From an uncultured archaeon (GTDB lineage: Archaea > Iainarchaeota > Iainarchaeia > Iainarchaeales > GW2011-AR10): 15,664 nt of DNA. Position numbers and translations under genes: made by a program. Numbering within the stretch: the first letter of the stretch is position 1; the number at the start of each line of letters is the position of its first letter. The stretch is taken from positions 5,177-20,840 of the forward strand of contig CAYIER010000007.1 of assembly GCA_964362395.1 (NCBI GenBank). Direction: 5' to 3'. Under the pieces are notes generated by a model, which searched no databases, was not told where the DNA came from, and worked only from the letters and a program-made list of their open reading frames with translations. This document shows positions 5,740 to 8,194 of this stretch, one piece after another.

Positions 5740-6687
5740 TTATTTCAAATATTTTAAGTATATTTCAAAAAATTTTCTGAAAGTATCCTCGTATTTTTCC
5801 AAAATAAAGCGTTCAAGGTTTTCTGCATAGCCGTTGTCAAAGTCTTCCAGGCACTTGAAATAAGCGATTCTCTGGGTTTTCCTTATTATCAGCGGCGGGT
5901 AGCCTTTATCGACAAGGATAACGTTTATCATGAACCTGCCAACCCTGCCGTTTCCATCCTCAAACGGGTGGATTTTTTCAAGTTTGCCGTGAAATTTTGC
6001 AGCCAGCTGCAGCGGGTGGATTGTTTTTTCGTTTTCTTCAAAATAATGGATTAATTTTTTCATTTCAGCGTCGACTCTTTCAGGCAAAACCGTTTCAACC
6101 GCCCTGCCAATGGCATAGTTTGGGACCTTTTTGTAGCCAGCCGGAATATCCATGTTTTTTACAAGAAGCCTGTGCATTCTCACCATGCCGGCTTCCGTGA
6201 CCCTGAATTTTTTTTGCAGAATTTTGTCGACAACTTTCCTTGAATTGACTGTTTCGTAAATTTCCCGCAGTTCCTTCCCTTTGATGACGTTTTTTTCAAA
6301 CAAAACAATGGCAACGTCTTTTAATGTAAGCGAGTTTCCCTCAATTGCATTTGATTCATAAGTAAAATTTGCAGTAAACCGGTCAAACAAGTCCTTTAGC
6401 TGGTTTTTTGAAAGCTTTTTCAGGATTTTTTTGTAATTTAAGCGGATTTCCTCGATTTTCCTAATTTTGCCTTCAGTGAAAACAGAATCCTTGCGGTACG
6501 CTTTTGCAGCCCAGTCACAGATGATTTTTATTTCCTGACCCTCAAACCAAGTGGCAAATTTTTCCCTTGACTCGCCCTTTTTAACCAGTTTCTGGATAGT
6601 TTTAACCCCACTGCCCGGTAAGCGAATTGATTTGGTCAAATAAAAATATTTTTTGCCAGAGATGCTTTTTTCCTTCAAAAAAACCAT
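5740..6687 (-). CDS. fic: Fic/Doc (Fido) family AMPylase, class II with cis inhibitory helix
   Basis: Complete Fic motif HPFEDGNGRVGR (nt about 5935-5970) matching HxFx(D/E)GNGRxxR. N-terminal inhibitory motif SNAIEGN (nt 6334-6354) matching (S/T)xxxE(G/N). 315 aa. Confidence 0.85.
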   Translation of the reverse strand: MVFLKEKSISGKKYFYLTKSIRLPGSGVKTIQKLVKKGESREKFATWFEGQEIKIICDWAAKAYRKDSVFTEGKIRKIEEIRLNYKKILKKLSKNQLKDLFDRFTANFTYESNAIEGNSLTLKDVAIVLFEKNVIKGKELREIYETVNSRKVVDKILQKKFRVTEAGMVRMHRLLVKNMDIPAGYKKVPNYAIGRAVETVLPERVDAEMKKLIHYFEENEKTIHPLQLAAKFHGKLEKIHPFEDGNGRVGRFMINVILVDKGYPPLIIRKTQRIAYFKCLEDFDNGYAENLERFILEKYEDTFRKFFEIYLKYLK

Positions 6688-6696
6688 ACAAAACTC

Positions 6697-6740
6697 TTAC
6701 CCCTACAAAAATATAAACATATGCAAAAATGTAGGGGTAA
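6697..6740 (-). promoter_or_regulatory. Perfect 11-bp inverted repeat TTACCCCTACA-N22-TGTAGGGGTAA bracketing a TATA-like element (atatgtttatat on minus) about 27 nt upstream of the leaderless fic ATG. Putative operator/promoter.
   Basis: Direct reading: 6697-6707 is the reverse complement of 6730-6740. Spacer 6708-6729 holds aaaaatataaacatatgcaaaaa. The fic ATG is at 6685-6687. Confidence 0.45.
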
Positions 6741-6877
6741 AATTAGGCAGCCGTACCAATGCCTACAAGCACCACACTTGCAAACACCATCAATGTTGGA
6801 TTAAAACAATCAACACCAAAACAGCCGCGATTTGTTTAAAATCCATTGAACCATTTAATTTGTAGTTTAAGTGTTAT

Positions 6878-7462
6878 TTATTTGTTTGCAGCGATTTTTT
6901 TCACGCGTTTTTGCACCCAGTTAGGGGATTTCTTCAGGTAGGCAGCCAGCAGCTTTTTGTTTGACTGCTCCAATAATTTGCCCGCAACGCCTGCAGGGAT
7001 TTTTTGGCGAAAATAAACAAAATCAATGAGTGTTTTTTCTGGCGTTGAAACAGGTAGCCAAAAATCATAATGCTTGACGAGTTCAAACCCAAAAAACATG
7101 CCTGCATCAACCCTTCGTACAACCACGTTTGCGCCCATTATTGCCCTCAAGCCAGGCCGCACCTTTTTTTGGGTAACTATCACCGGGTTTGCCGCCTGAT
7201 CCCACACATTGTGGAACGAAAGGGCCTGGTGCAGCCCATAATAAAAAGGCGAAAAAGCAAACCCGCAAACCAAAATGTCATCTTTAAAAGAATAAAACCC
7301 TTTGGCGATTTTGCGGAGTTTTCCTTTTTTTTGCAGGTAATGAATCAAAAAATACAGGTATTGCCTTGAAATTTTTTTTTGCTTCAAAAAAATCCGCGCA
7401 TCACGAATTGAAAACACTTCGCGGCCGCCAAAATGCCTGACAAAATCTGAAATGTACTTCAC
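6878..7462 (-). CDS. AbiEi-like (COG5340-type) wHTH transcriptional regulator/antitoxin of a type IV TA system
   Basis: The N-terminus MKYISDFVRHFGGREVFSIRDARIFLKQKKISRQYLYFLIHYLQKKGKLRKIAKGFYSF fits the AbiEi N-terminal wHTH pattern (fs..dl...g.s...L..L.k.G.l.ri.rG.Y). GTG start overlapping the upstream TGA (GTGA) implies translational coupling. 194 aa. Confidence 0.55.
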   Translation of the reverse strand: MKYISDFVRHFGGREVFSIRDARIFLKQKKISRQYLYFLIHYLQKKGKLRKIAKGFYSFKDDILVCGFAFSPFYYGLHQALSFHNVWDQAANPVIVTQKKVRPGLRAIMGANVVVRRVDAGMFFGFELVKHYDFWLPVSTPEKTLIDFVYFRQKIPAGVAGKLLEQSNKKLLAAYLKKSPNWVQKRVKKIAANK

Positions 7463-8106
7463 TGCAAAAACCTCCTTTTCAAAACAACAGCCATTTGTTC
7501 AAATGAAGGGACAGCGCCTGCCAAAACCAAATTTTTGAGGTTTTGTTCATCAGCCGGTTTTGGAAGATTTTCAAGCAAACCAGCAACCATTTTGGAAAAT
7601 TTTTCATCATTTGAAGAAAAGCGGCTCAAATGAAAAACGTCATAAATGTCCCGAATCAGCCTGCGGTTTTTGAATGCATTCAGTTTTTCAACCAGCAATT
7701 CATCAGCAGAAGGGGTAAAAATATCAATTGAAGTGCCGTCTGCTTTTTCGTATTCAGAAACAGCCGGCTTTTTGAATTCACGCAAAGCAATTTCCAATGC
7801 AACACTGACTTTTTCTTTTTCAATTTTTGAATAAACTGCGTTTTCTGTTTTGCGGAATTTTGTGATTTTTAAACCAAGCAACCCAAGTTTTTTTTCTAGC
7901 AATTCCTTAAAATCCGCCTTGGGCTTTATATAAAAGTCCAAATCCTCTGAAAACCTGTTTCCGCCAAAGCACCGCCAGATGGCTGTGCCGCCGTGCAAAA
8001 CCGCATTTTCTTCAAGCGAATATACAGTTTCAACCACAATGTCCTGCAGTTCTGCAATATCCTTGTGAAGAGTGCGCTTCAGCCTGTTGTGCAAAGGAAT
8101 CTTCAT
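7459..8106 (-). CDS. AbiEii/DUF1814-family nucleotidyltransferase toxin (COG2253-like)
   Basis: HGGTAIWRCFGGNRFSEDLDF (nt about 7941-7994) matches motifs I (hGGt) and II (RxSxDlD) of DUF1814/AbiEii nucleotidyltransferases. A downstream EK...RDIYD motif is present. 215 aa. Its own TATA is at 8127-8139. Confidence 0.7.
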   Translation of the reverse strand: MKIPLHNRLKRTLHKDIAELQDIVVETVYSLEENAVLHGGTAIWRCFGGNRFSEDLDFYIKPKADFKELLEKKLGLLGLKITKFRKTENAVYSKIEKEKVSVALEIALREFKKPAVSEYEKADGTSIDIFTPSADELLVEKLNAFKNRRLIRDIYDVFHLSRFSSNDEKFSKMVAGLLENLPKPADEQNLKNLVLAGAVPSFEQMAVVLKRRFLQ

Positions 8107-8126
8107 AAATTAATGAATCAACCAAA

Positions 8127-8139
8127 CTTATAAAAAAAC
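8127..8139 (-). promoter_or_regulatory. TATA-like element (tttttttataag on minus) about 25 nt upstream of the abiEii ATG (leaderless)
   Basis: Spacing to the ATG at 8106; consensus-like TTTATAA. Confidence 0.4.
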
Positions 8140-8194
8140 CTATGTTTGGGCGATTCAATAAAAAGTATGGTTTTTGGCGGTTCCAGCTATTTTT

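Follow-up and report, generated by a model that had tools for sequence, protein, structure and literature searches.

The stretch of DNA analysed here (the window) is 15,664 nucleotides (nt) long and comes from an uncultured archaeon (contig CAYIER010000007.1, positions 5,177 to 20,840). It contains, at 5740-8190, an islet of three minus-strand genes, abiEii (8106-7459), abiEi (7462-6878) and fic (6687-5740), flanked by rpiB (5302-5736, plus strand) and by a gene for a PCNA paralogue, called here PCNA-b (8195-8977, minus strand). We consider it likely that this is a genuine accessory islet of a Diapherotrites-type groundwater DPANN archaeon, in which two independent modules, an AbiE operon and a single fic gene, lie in the 3'-3' spacer between PCNA-b and rpiB. 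A preliminary description of the window had placed fic, abiEii and an abiEi-like gene between rpiB and a PCNA gene, and both Pfam and PADLOC confirm these assignments. It had also taken the three genes for one small toxin or defence islet. This holds insofar as the AbiE and Fic genes form an accessory, compositionally distinct islet among replication genes, but they are two modules with separate histories and do not represent a single insertion.

The evidence comes from relatives of the locus, which were found through PCNA-b and AbiEii. In these the gene order is the same and the spacer between PCNA-b and rpiB varies, and five occupancy states of this spacer were recovered. At locus L088 (PCNA-b 72% identical to that of the window) the site is empty, with PCNA-b 120 nt from rpiB. 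At L086 (79%) the spacer contains an open reading frame (ORF) of 56 amino acids (aa) for a UPF0175 protein, in an order that is otherwise the same over more than 10 kb. L124, from a Diapherotrites metagenome-assembled genome (75.5%), has abiEii-abiEi only, 31 nt from the rpiB stop codon. L087, the closest relative (93%), has abiEii-abiEi and then reaches the end of its contig. The window itself and L089 (98%, from a different replicate assembly) have abiEii-abiEi-fic. AbiE and Fic occur together at this site only in the window's own population. Presence thus varies between relatives, as is expected of accessory genes. The preliminary description had named a flank-like composition, together with conserved presence of all three genes across the lineage, as the observation that would speak against an islet; neither is found. 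The UPF0175 ORF of L086 (L086:10772-10942; Pfam 4.8e-11) is antitoxin-like and overlaps the end of rpiB by 4 nt, and no toxin partner is visible beside it.

The AbiE pair appears to be an old inhabitant of the site. Its DNA is 88.0% identical between the window and L087, against 87.3% for the flanks. Between the window and L124 the AbiEii proteins are 75% and the AbiEi proteins 73% identical, against 75.5% for PCNA-b, and no AbiEii homologue at a non-syntenic locus is more than 68% identical. The divergence of AbiE has kept pace with that of its flanks, and the pair is therefore best regarded as an old, vertically inherited resident that is absent from some lineages.

The fic gene has a different history. 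At the right junction (5734-5742) the fic stop codon (5740-5742) is 3 nt from the convergent rpiB stop codon (5734-5736), and the C-terminus encoded by rpiB has been remodelled. It ends in RVKKIDSK in the window, in RVKKIG in L124, which has no fic, and in RVKKMG in L086 and L088; DNA homology between the window and L124 ends within the last rpiB codons. The window thus has a derived C-terminus, those of L124, L086 and L088 being ancestral-like, and fic therefore looks like a later gain and not like a loss in L124. The left junction (8158-8194, minus strand) is the spacer after the PCNA-b stop codon. It cannot be aligned to the empty site of L088 or to L086, and in L087 the spacer is different and longer: about 90 extra nt (L087:1700-1815), including a GC-rich hairpin, GTCCCGCCTGCGGCGGGAC, separate the PCNA-b stop codon from the AbiE promoter. 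Between abiEi and the fic promoter there is a further spacer (6741-6877, minus strand), which has no homology to the regions upstream of other fic genes and is probably part of the junction that formed when fic arrived. It contains only hydrophobic ORFs of 14-18 codons, such as MDFKQIAAVLVLIVLIQH and MVFASVVLVGIGTAA, which may be remnants of a gene for a small membrane protein or may be due to chance.

A 26-nt inverted repeat with 77% identity links the 3' ends of rpiB (5707-5736) and abiEi (6878-6910). It was considered as a recombination scar and rejected, since it reflects the KRVKKI C-termini of the two proteins. A peptide of this type is native to both families, being present in the AbiEi of L124 and, as RVKK, in the rpiB products of L086 and L088. 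The repeat is probably a coincidence, although it could have offered microhomology. The islet has none of the features of an integrative genomic island (an integrase, a tRNA target and flanking direct repeats), in agreement with what had been noted by eye: a domain search found no integrase among the ORFs of the window, no tRNA or other Rfam family was found in the window, and there are no convincing direct repeats or target-site duplications around the islet. On this basis we hypothesise that AbiE entered the PCNA-b/rpiB site first and was then inherited vertically, and that a later insertion placed fic between abiEi and rpiB and clipped the last codon of rpiB. On this view the site is a hot spot that receives small cargo of the toxin-antitoxin or defence kind, with no integrase visible and probably by recombination.

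The composition of the islet is also distinct. Its content of G plus C (GC) is 0.393 in the window and 0.394 on a near-identical public contig, below that of all 271 non-overlapping comparison windows of 2451 nt on that contig (0.440-0.482). Its tetranucleotide distance is above that of all 271, with and without correction for GC, and the GC content at third codon positions is 0.39-0.46 in the islet genes versus 0.49-0.56 in 12 flanking genes. The AT-richness that had been noted by eye for these genes is therefore real. The enrichment in A/T homopolymers that was described with it is present but modest, at 9.0 runs of at least 6 nt per kb versus a mean of 6.0 in the other windows (standard deviation 1.6, maximum 10.2). 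The low GC content is no evidence of recent arrival, because AbiE is constant at 0.40-0.41 in the window, L087 and L124 while the flanks vary (0.46, 0.44 and 0.42, respectively). At other loci, the GC content of AbiE and fic modules broadly follows that of the host, from 0.20 to 0.59.

The first module is the AbiE operon. Its first gene, abiEii (7459-8106, minus strand), encodes a DUF1814 nucleotidyltransferase toxin of 215 aa, identified by Pfam (PF08843, 4.8e-20, 72.9 bits against a cut-off of 22.5) and PADLOC (AbiEii, 2.9e-22). The DUF1814 motifs, namely I-II (hG[G/S]-x-DhD plus the motif II Arg), III (KLxAaxxR) and IV (+DxxD), were defined by Dy et al. (PMC3985639). They are found here as G39G40-x14-D55LD57 with R51 as the motif II Arg, K141LNAFKNR148 and R152DIYD156, and in an alignment their key residues are conserved in 118-120 of 120 homologues. 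Ser53, which is two residues before the first motif II Asp, is invariant in all 120. The segment R51-F-S53-E-D55 corresponds, as a positional match only, to R63-S-T65-x-D67 of S. agalactiae AbiEii, in which T65 is the phospho-acceptor.

The second gene, abiEi (6878-7462, minus strand), starts with GTG and encodes an antitoxin and probable autorepressor of 194 aa (Pfam AbiEi_4, PF13338, 26.7 bits against a cut-off of 25; PADLOC AbiEi, 2.2e-14). Residues 3-191 are matched by 19 AbiEi models, with a layout of a winged helix-turn-helix (wHTH) at the N-terminus followed by a C-terminal domain, and the start at MKY agrees with the homologues in L005, L087 and L124. A sequence search found no solved relative of AbiEi. 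The stop codon of abiEii and the start codon of abiEi overlap by 4 nt (GTGA), which indicates that the two genes are probably translationally coupled, and a GGAGG Shine-Dalgarno-like element (7471-7475, minus strand) is located 8 nt upstream of the GTG, within the 3' end of abiEii. TATA-like boxes are found only for abiEii (8128-8136) and fic (6711-6717). The islet therefore consists of two transcription units, and not of the three implied by the preliminary description.

The pair has the features by which AbiE systems are recognised, namely a DUF1814 domain with the nucleotidyltransferase motifs, an adjacent wHTH AbiEi in a bicistronic operon, and a Ser/Thr at the phospho-acceptor position. 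The toxin gene precedes the antitoxin gene in all nine loci of the DPANN AbiE subfamily, the window included. At the distant loci L092, L055 and L050 the regulator or antitoxin gene comes first, with an AbiEi domain in L092 and L055. The window thus departs from the canonical antitoxin-first order, but this order is customary, not definitional.

The abiE promoter (8114-8157, minus strand) is a palindrome, TGAATCgcCCAAAC...GTTTGGttGATTCA, around a TATA-like box, TTTTTATAA (8128-8136). Read towards the abiEii ATG (8157-8114), the sequence is TGAATCgcCCAAAC-ATAGG-TTTTTTTATAA-GTTTGGttGATTCA and is two-fold symmetric. The core, CCAAACATAGGTTTTTTTATA[A/T]GTTTGG, is kept exactly in L087, L089, L005, L090 and L124, and L125, L126 and L091 have symmetric variants of the palindrome. 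It is 100% conserved between the window and L087, compared to 88% identity for the coding DNA. In S. agalactiae, AbiEi binds inverted repeats in the promoter and thereby represses its own promoter (PMC3985639), and by this precedent the palindrome is a probable AbiEi operator.

The second module is monocistronic. The fic gene (5740-6687, minus strand) encodes a protein of 315 aa, a class II, FICD-like Fic AMP-transferase. It matches Pfam Fic (PF02661) at 8.4e-18, and in PADLOC, a check that had been suggested for the islet and that matched the AbiE proteins as well, it matches PDC-S04 (3.2e-39) ahead of SoFic (2.4e-25). The catalytic motif is H240PFEDGNGRVGR251, in which the His, Phe, Asp, Gly-Asn-Gly-Arg and last Arg do not vary among 32 homologues from Diapherotrites, Micrarchaeota and Altiarchaeota (mean column identity 66%). 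Equally invariant in these homologues are the S, N, A, E and G of a second motif, S112-N-A-I-E116-G117. Class II Fic proteins carry, within the chain itself and on the N-terminal side of the Fic core, an inhibitory motif of the form (S/T)xxxE(G/N), and the internal S112NAIEG117 therefore makes this protein a class II, internally inhibited Fic. Beside fic there is no conserved ORF for a small partner antitoxin, and with its internal inhibitory motif the protein does not belong to the class I FicTA type.

The closest solved structures by sequence are human FICD (1e-28), the Fic of C. difficile, FIC-1 of C. elegans and BT_2513 of B. thetaiotaomicron, with SoFic at 2e-5. The AlphaFold (AF2) model has a predicted local distance difference test score (pLDDT) of 85.6, and its top Foldseek matches are again FICD, BT_2513 and the C. 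difficile Fic. With a human protein as its closest solved relative, and with an invariant inhibitory motif of its own, this Fic is not the free toxin that it was at first taken to be. The only segment of the model with a pLDDT below 50 is that at residues 112-124 (window 6317-6354), yet this is the most conserved part of the protein. The low pLDDT at the inhibitory motif is consistent with a mobile inhibitory helix.

Residues 1-95 form a separate N-terminal domain, modelled as a three-stranded sheet with two helices. They have no Pfam match (best E 0.18), and apart from one weak internal match the domain is found only at the N-terminus of proteins of Fic length or of apparent fragments of these. 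The other end of the protein is just past the Fic core, and no C-terminal wHTH is found in it by Pfam. The curated SoFic model of NCBIfam (NF046030) gives 33.5 bits against a cut-off of 550. A profile search of genome contigs with the Fic alignment was dominated by generic Fic motifs and gave no close relatives, the best among the matches listed being 43% identical. These matches were used again only for comparison with the background and to obtain the promoters of distant archaeal fic genes.

The fic promoter (6697-6740, minus strand) is also palindromic, with perfect arms of 11 nt, TTACCCCTACA-N22-TGTAGGGGTAA, around the TATA-like TTTATAT (6711-6717). The ATG follows the right arm at a distance of 9 nt (10 nt counted to its A). 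The half-site has two matches in the window versus 0.07 expected, and none is outside the fic promoter. The palindrome occurs at the same distance from fic in L002/L003, L004, L005 and L089, where the neighbours are unrelated. Symmetric variants are found at L127 (7940-8000; arms TTCCCCCACAAA / TTTGTGGGGGAA), at L006 (2040-2120) and L007 (90-166), which both have GTTATACCTACA / TGTAGGTATAAC, at L023 (GTTATAACCAC / GTGGTTATAAC), at L009 (TGTTGTCCACA / TGTGGACAATA) and at L008; at L126 (5310-5345) the arms are TTACCCTTTATT / AATAAAGGGTAA. Among 12 loci of DPANN Fic homologues that align from the N-terminus, ten have at least 10 of 12 symmetric positions around a TATA-like box just upstream of the ATG, and at eight of the 12 no more than 5 of 300 shuffles reach the observed symmetry.

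The palindrome thus travels with the gene, and its two arms change together, symmetrically, from one lineage to another. This suggests a dimeric binder encoded in cis. Fic is the sole candidate for such a regulator, and it is plausible that it regulates its own gene. There are precedents: SoFic, as a dimer, binds the promoter of its own gene, and CccR, also a Fic protein, is an autoregulator (preprint 10.64898/2026.07.09.737422). The analogy is weakened by the fact that SoFic and CccR bind through a C-terminal wHTH, which the Fic of the window lacks. AbiEi was considered as the binder and rejected, since the palindrome is kept at fic loci with no AbiE nearby. An RNA hairpin is thought unlikely, as the loop would contain the TATA box at promoter distance from the ATG. 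In addition, L002 and L005 have the same imperfect right arm (with C-C and C-T oppositions), so that it is the sequence that is conserved and not the pairing. A viral link was also tried: the pattern of the palindrome has 31 matches in viral contigs, but none of these carries Fic or AbiE, and they are therefore unlinked to the fic module. The viral contigs contain no close relative of Fic or AbiEii and no match to the AbiE operator.

How the modules might work can be proposed by homology. The first would be an AbiE-type toxin-antitoxin or abortive-infection operon in reversed gene order, transcribed from the TATA box within its conserved palindrome. AbiEi would repress this promoter and would hold the AbiEii nucleotidyltransferase inactive, presumably by binding it and inducing auto-phosphorylation of Ser53, as in S. 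agalactiae AbiE and MenAT. On depletion of AbiEi, tRNA 3' ends would be extended with nucleotides by AbiEii and translation would stop. Recent work on these two systems describes neutralisation by antitoxin binding and induced auto-phosphorylation, with nucleotidylation of tRNA 3' ends by pyrimidines as the toxic act. For the S. agalactiae protein in particular, a 2026 preprint reports addition of pyrimidines to tRNA (UTP over CTP) and neutralisation by antitoxin-induced auto-phosphorylation. The view of AbiEii as a GTP-specific enzyme, which the preliminary description followed, is thereby superseded; this older label came from binding assays on protein that was probably phosphorylated. In the second module, the active site of a monocistronic class II Fic would be blocked by its own inhibitory helix, bearing Glu116. 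A trigger, which might be infection or a change of oligomeric state, would relieve the inhibition, and the released enzyme would AMPylate a protein of the host. A translation factor is a plausible candidate by analogy with SoFic, for which EF-Tu is an AMPylation target. Fic may also repress its own promoter. The modules would be located together because cargo accumulates at such sites, possibly with some synergy, and would not be parts of one machine.

This proposal has to be weighed against the stronger idea that the three genes are one obligate tripartite system, selected and moved as a unit, in which Fic is a partner of the AbiE pair and would, for example, modify AbiEii, AbiEi or a common target. 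The same families are indeed adjacent in three independent DPANN contexts, the window, L005 and L126. At L005 the three proteins are 67% (Fic), 60% (AbiEii) and 56% (AbiEi) identical to those of the window. L126 has a tandem abiEii-abiEi-fic in which the Fic is only 30% identical and belongs to a different subfamily with its own palindrome, and so resembles the non-orthologous replacement of a needed partner. There is also a bacterial case, L055 (Segatella copri; L055:2560-5549), with a canonical abiEi-abiEii pair followed 500 nt on by a Fic with a C-terminal MarR-type wHTH, against a low background of 2 out of 80 distant Fic loci with an AbiEii-like ORF within 6 kb. However, the two modules have separate TATA boxes and conserved palindromes that differ from each other, and the relative orientation varies, being tandem in the window and convergent in L005. 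AbiE is found without fic at the very same site in L124, and alone in L090, L125 and L128, while fic is found without AbiE, and with its palindrome retained, in L002/L003, L004 and L127. The neighbours elsewhere are other defence or toxin-antitoxin genes (MmeI-type restriction-modification, GmrSD, SIR2, PemK and PIN in the island of L005; ParE, HicB or PIN modules in L125 and L128), which fits clustering in islands, and both families are among the commonest in DPANN archaea (PMC12988326). We therefore regard an obligate tripartite system as very improbable. The association of AbiE with Fic is, we conclude, non-random but facultative, and is best explained by defence and toxin-antitoxin cargo gathering at permissive sites; synergy is possible. 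The functional composite proposed in the preliminary description is thus not supported as an obligate system, given the separate promoters, operators and solo loci, and keeps its basis in an adjacency that recurs more often than chance. A more ambitious reading is improbable too, if somewhat less so: that the DPANN Fic is a self-repressing transcription factor as well as an AMPylase, with its N-terminal domain reading the palindrome, and that the recurrent pairing with AbiE is a synergistic, two-pronged shutdown of translation. If true, the two prongs would be tRNA 3' ends and an elongation factor, hit with more effect jointly than apart.

A different question is whether the modules are antiviral at all. 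AbiE could be a selfish or addictive toxin-antitoxin pair, and Fic a domesticated, FICD-like, reversible regulator of physiology; we consider this unlikely, but it is the alternative to which we give most weight. FICD both AMPylates and deAMPylates a chaperone, and it is the closest solved relative of the Fic described here. The glutamate of the inhibitory motif supports deAMPylation in FICD and in bacterial Fic proteins (PMC6408439). To this may be added the co-divergence of AbiE with PCNA-b at one locus, across about 25% protein divergence, the high conservation of the Fic family, its score below the SoFic equivalog threshold, and the failure to find either family carried in viral contigs. 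On the other hand, fic is found in variable, non-syntenic contexts that include a clear defence island (L005), and is missing from the site in close relatives, unlike a housekeeping regulator. Both families match anti-phage hidden Markov model sets, and for AbiE and SoFic an anti-phage role has been supported by experiments in bacteria (PMC3985639; PMC12249575). That there was no insertion, the genes being native and simply AT-rich or the junctions being an assembly chimera, is hardly credible. Composition alone would indeed be weak evidence, as the GC content of AbiE is close to that of the flanks in L124 and L090. Against this, the site is empty in L088 and differently filled in L086, where the rest of the gene order is identical for more than 10 kb. 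In addition, L089 (the different replicate assembly), L087 and L124 each yielded the junctions independently, and the islet is a compositional outlier against the 271 windows.

Several points nonetheless count against an accessory islet of two independent defence modules, which is the reading that we prefer. For these genes toxicity and its neutralisation, targets, binding to DNA and antiviral activity are all predicted by homology. A defence role for Fic is uncertain, because the protein is closer to FICD than to the validated SoFic, scores best on the unvalidated PDC-S04 and has no SoFic-type wHTH. AbiE has long been retained at one locus, which would be expected of an addictive or stably useful module just as much as of a defence gene. 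By pairwise identity the window, L086 and L124 are approximately equidistant, with L088 outside them, which makes any ordering of AbiE gains and losses uncertain. The recurrent adjacency of AbiE and fic (L005, L126 and L055) leaves room for a functional link. Finally, the sample is small, at about six independent contexts per family; a metagenome scan with AbiEii gave only four loci.

The genes around the islet encode archaeal information-processing and housekeeping functions: a P-type ATPase, PriL, two PCNA paralogues, rpiB, RNA polymerase subunit L, SpoIIM, a Band 7 protein, DUF373 and LonB. Where homologues of the proteins in the window have names, these are overwhelmingly from Candidatus Diapherotrites and other DPANN archaea. 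The second PCNA paralogue (PCNA-a, 4296-5132, minus strand) and PriL are further to the left of rpiB. The two PCNAs, one on either side of rpiB and the islet, are about 31% identical, and the order PCNA-b, rpiB, PCNA-a, PriL is kept in L086 and L124, and in L088 as far as the contig reaches. A reduced DPANN genome with two PCNAs is possibly of interest in itself. LonB is a single ORF of 655 aa on the contig of the window; in L086 (L086:520-4410) it is split into ORFs of 361, 331 (with no Pfam match) and 473 aa, which may represent an intein or some other insertion. An imperfect CA-rich repeat (350-407), with 5.8 copies of a unit of approximately CGCAAACACA, is found upstream of the P-type ATPase gene, in the intergenic region.

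The window was also compared with a public groundwater metagenome contig of 27.5 kb (ENA ERZ1292643, Hainich well H51), and is the reverse complement of part of it, with 18 differing positions. Five of these are clustered within 95 nt of the P-type ATPase gene (1600-1694), the other 13 being elsewhere, and position 8157, the outermost base of the AbiE palindrome, is among the 18.

Compared with known systems, the first module resembles AbiE and MenAT, which combine a DUF1814 nucleotidyltransferase toxin with a COG5340 antitoxin. It shares with them motifs I-IV including the motif II Arg, a Ser at the phospho-acceptor position, the adjacent wHTH AbiEi partner, the bicistronic overlapping operon and the inverted repeat at the promoter. 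It differs from canonical AbiE in the order of toxin and antitoxin, and in that its probable operator surrounds an archaeal TATA box rather than a -35/-10 promoter. The toxin is also short, its 215 aa covering positions 11-191 of the 238 in the Pfam model, has a motif I-II spacing of 14 rather than 15, is only weakly similar to solved DUF1814 structures (1e-5) and has no match in NCBIfam.

The Fic is most like the FICD/HYPE-type class II proteins (human FICD, FIC-1, C. difficile Fic and BT_2513). These are its best matches both by sequence (1e-28 to 1e-20) and by structure, over residues 94-303 approximately, and have the same internal (S/T)xxxE(G/N) helix ahead of the HxFx(D/E)GNGRxxR motif. 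Unlike FICD, it has no tetratricopeptide repeats or membrane anchor, with the 95-residue sheet and two-helix domain in their place, and its gene is mobile. With SoFic (Shewanella SoFic and E. coli Sofic) it has in common that it is a class II Fic encoded by a single gene and that it matches the PADLOC SoFic model, and the palindrome at its own promoter is as expected if it autoregulates in the manner of SoFic and CccR. The missing C-terminal wHTH, the low score against the NCBIfam equivalog and the weak match to SoFic structures set it apart. Its best PADLOC match, PDC-S04, is an unvalidated candidate. It also differs from Fic loci with an AS1-like antitoxin, as there is no room for such a gene downstream, where the rpiB stop codon is only 3 nt away.

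As a whole, the locus resembles defence islands and core-gene hot spots in having variable cargo (nothing, UPF0175, AbiE, or AbiE plus Fic) at a conserved site, and elsewhere the neighbours of AbiE and fic are other toxin-antitoxin or defence genes. Unlike typical defence islands, it is very small (2.4 kb), has no integrase, tRNA or repeats, and belongs to a reduced DPANN genome, in which it has a PCNA paralogue on either side. DPANN archaea, in which restriction-modification and CRISPR are scarce, are reported to be enriched in AbiE and SoFic (PMC12988326), and AbiE and SoFic-type Fic are among the commonest defence families of groundwater genomes (PMC12259885). Current views are therefore not overturned, as surveys already list these genes as characteristic DPANN defences. 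The islet is a real, well delimited and ordinary representative of known kinds, with some modest new details: the toxin-first order across the DPANN AbiE subfamily, a FICD-like Fic whose N-terminal domain is peculiar to its family, two promoter palindromes that move with their genes, that of fic changing symmetrically in its arms and so pointing to a cis-encoded regulator, and an insertion hot spot, between two PCNA paralogues, that is documented in five states. It is a clean and dated case of a reduced DPANN genome acquiring, at a fixed site and with no integrase, small cargo of the defence or toxin-antitoxin kind.

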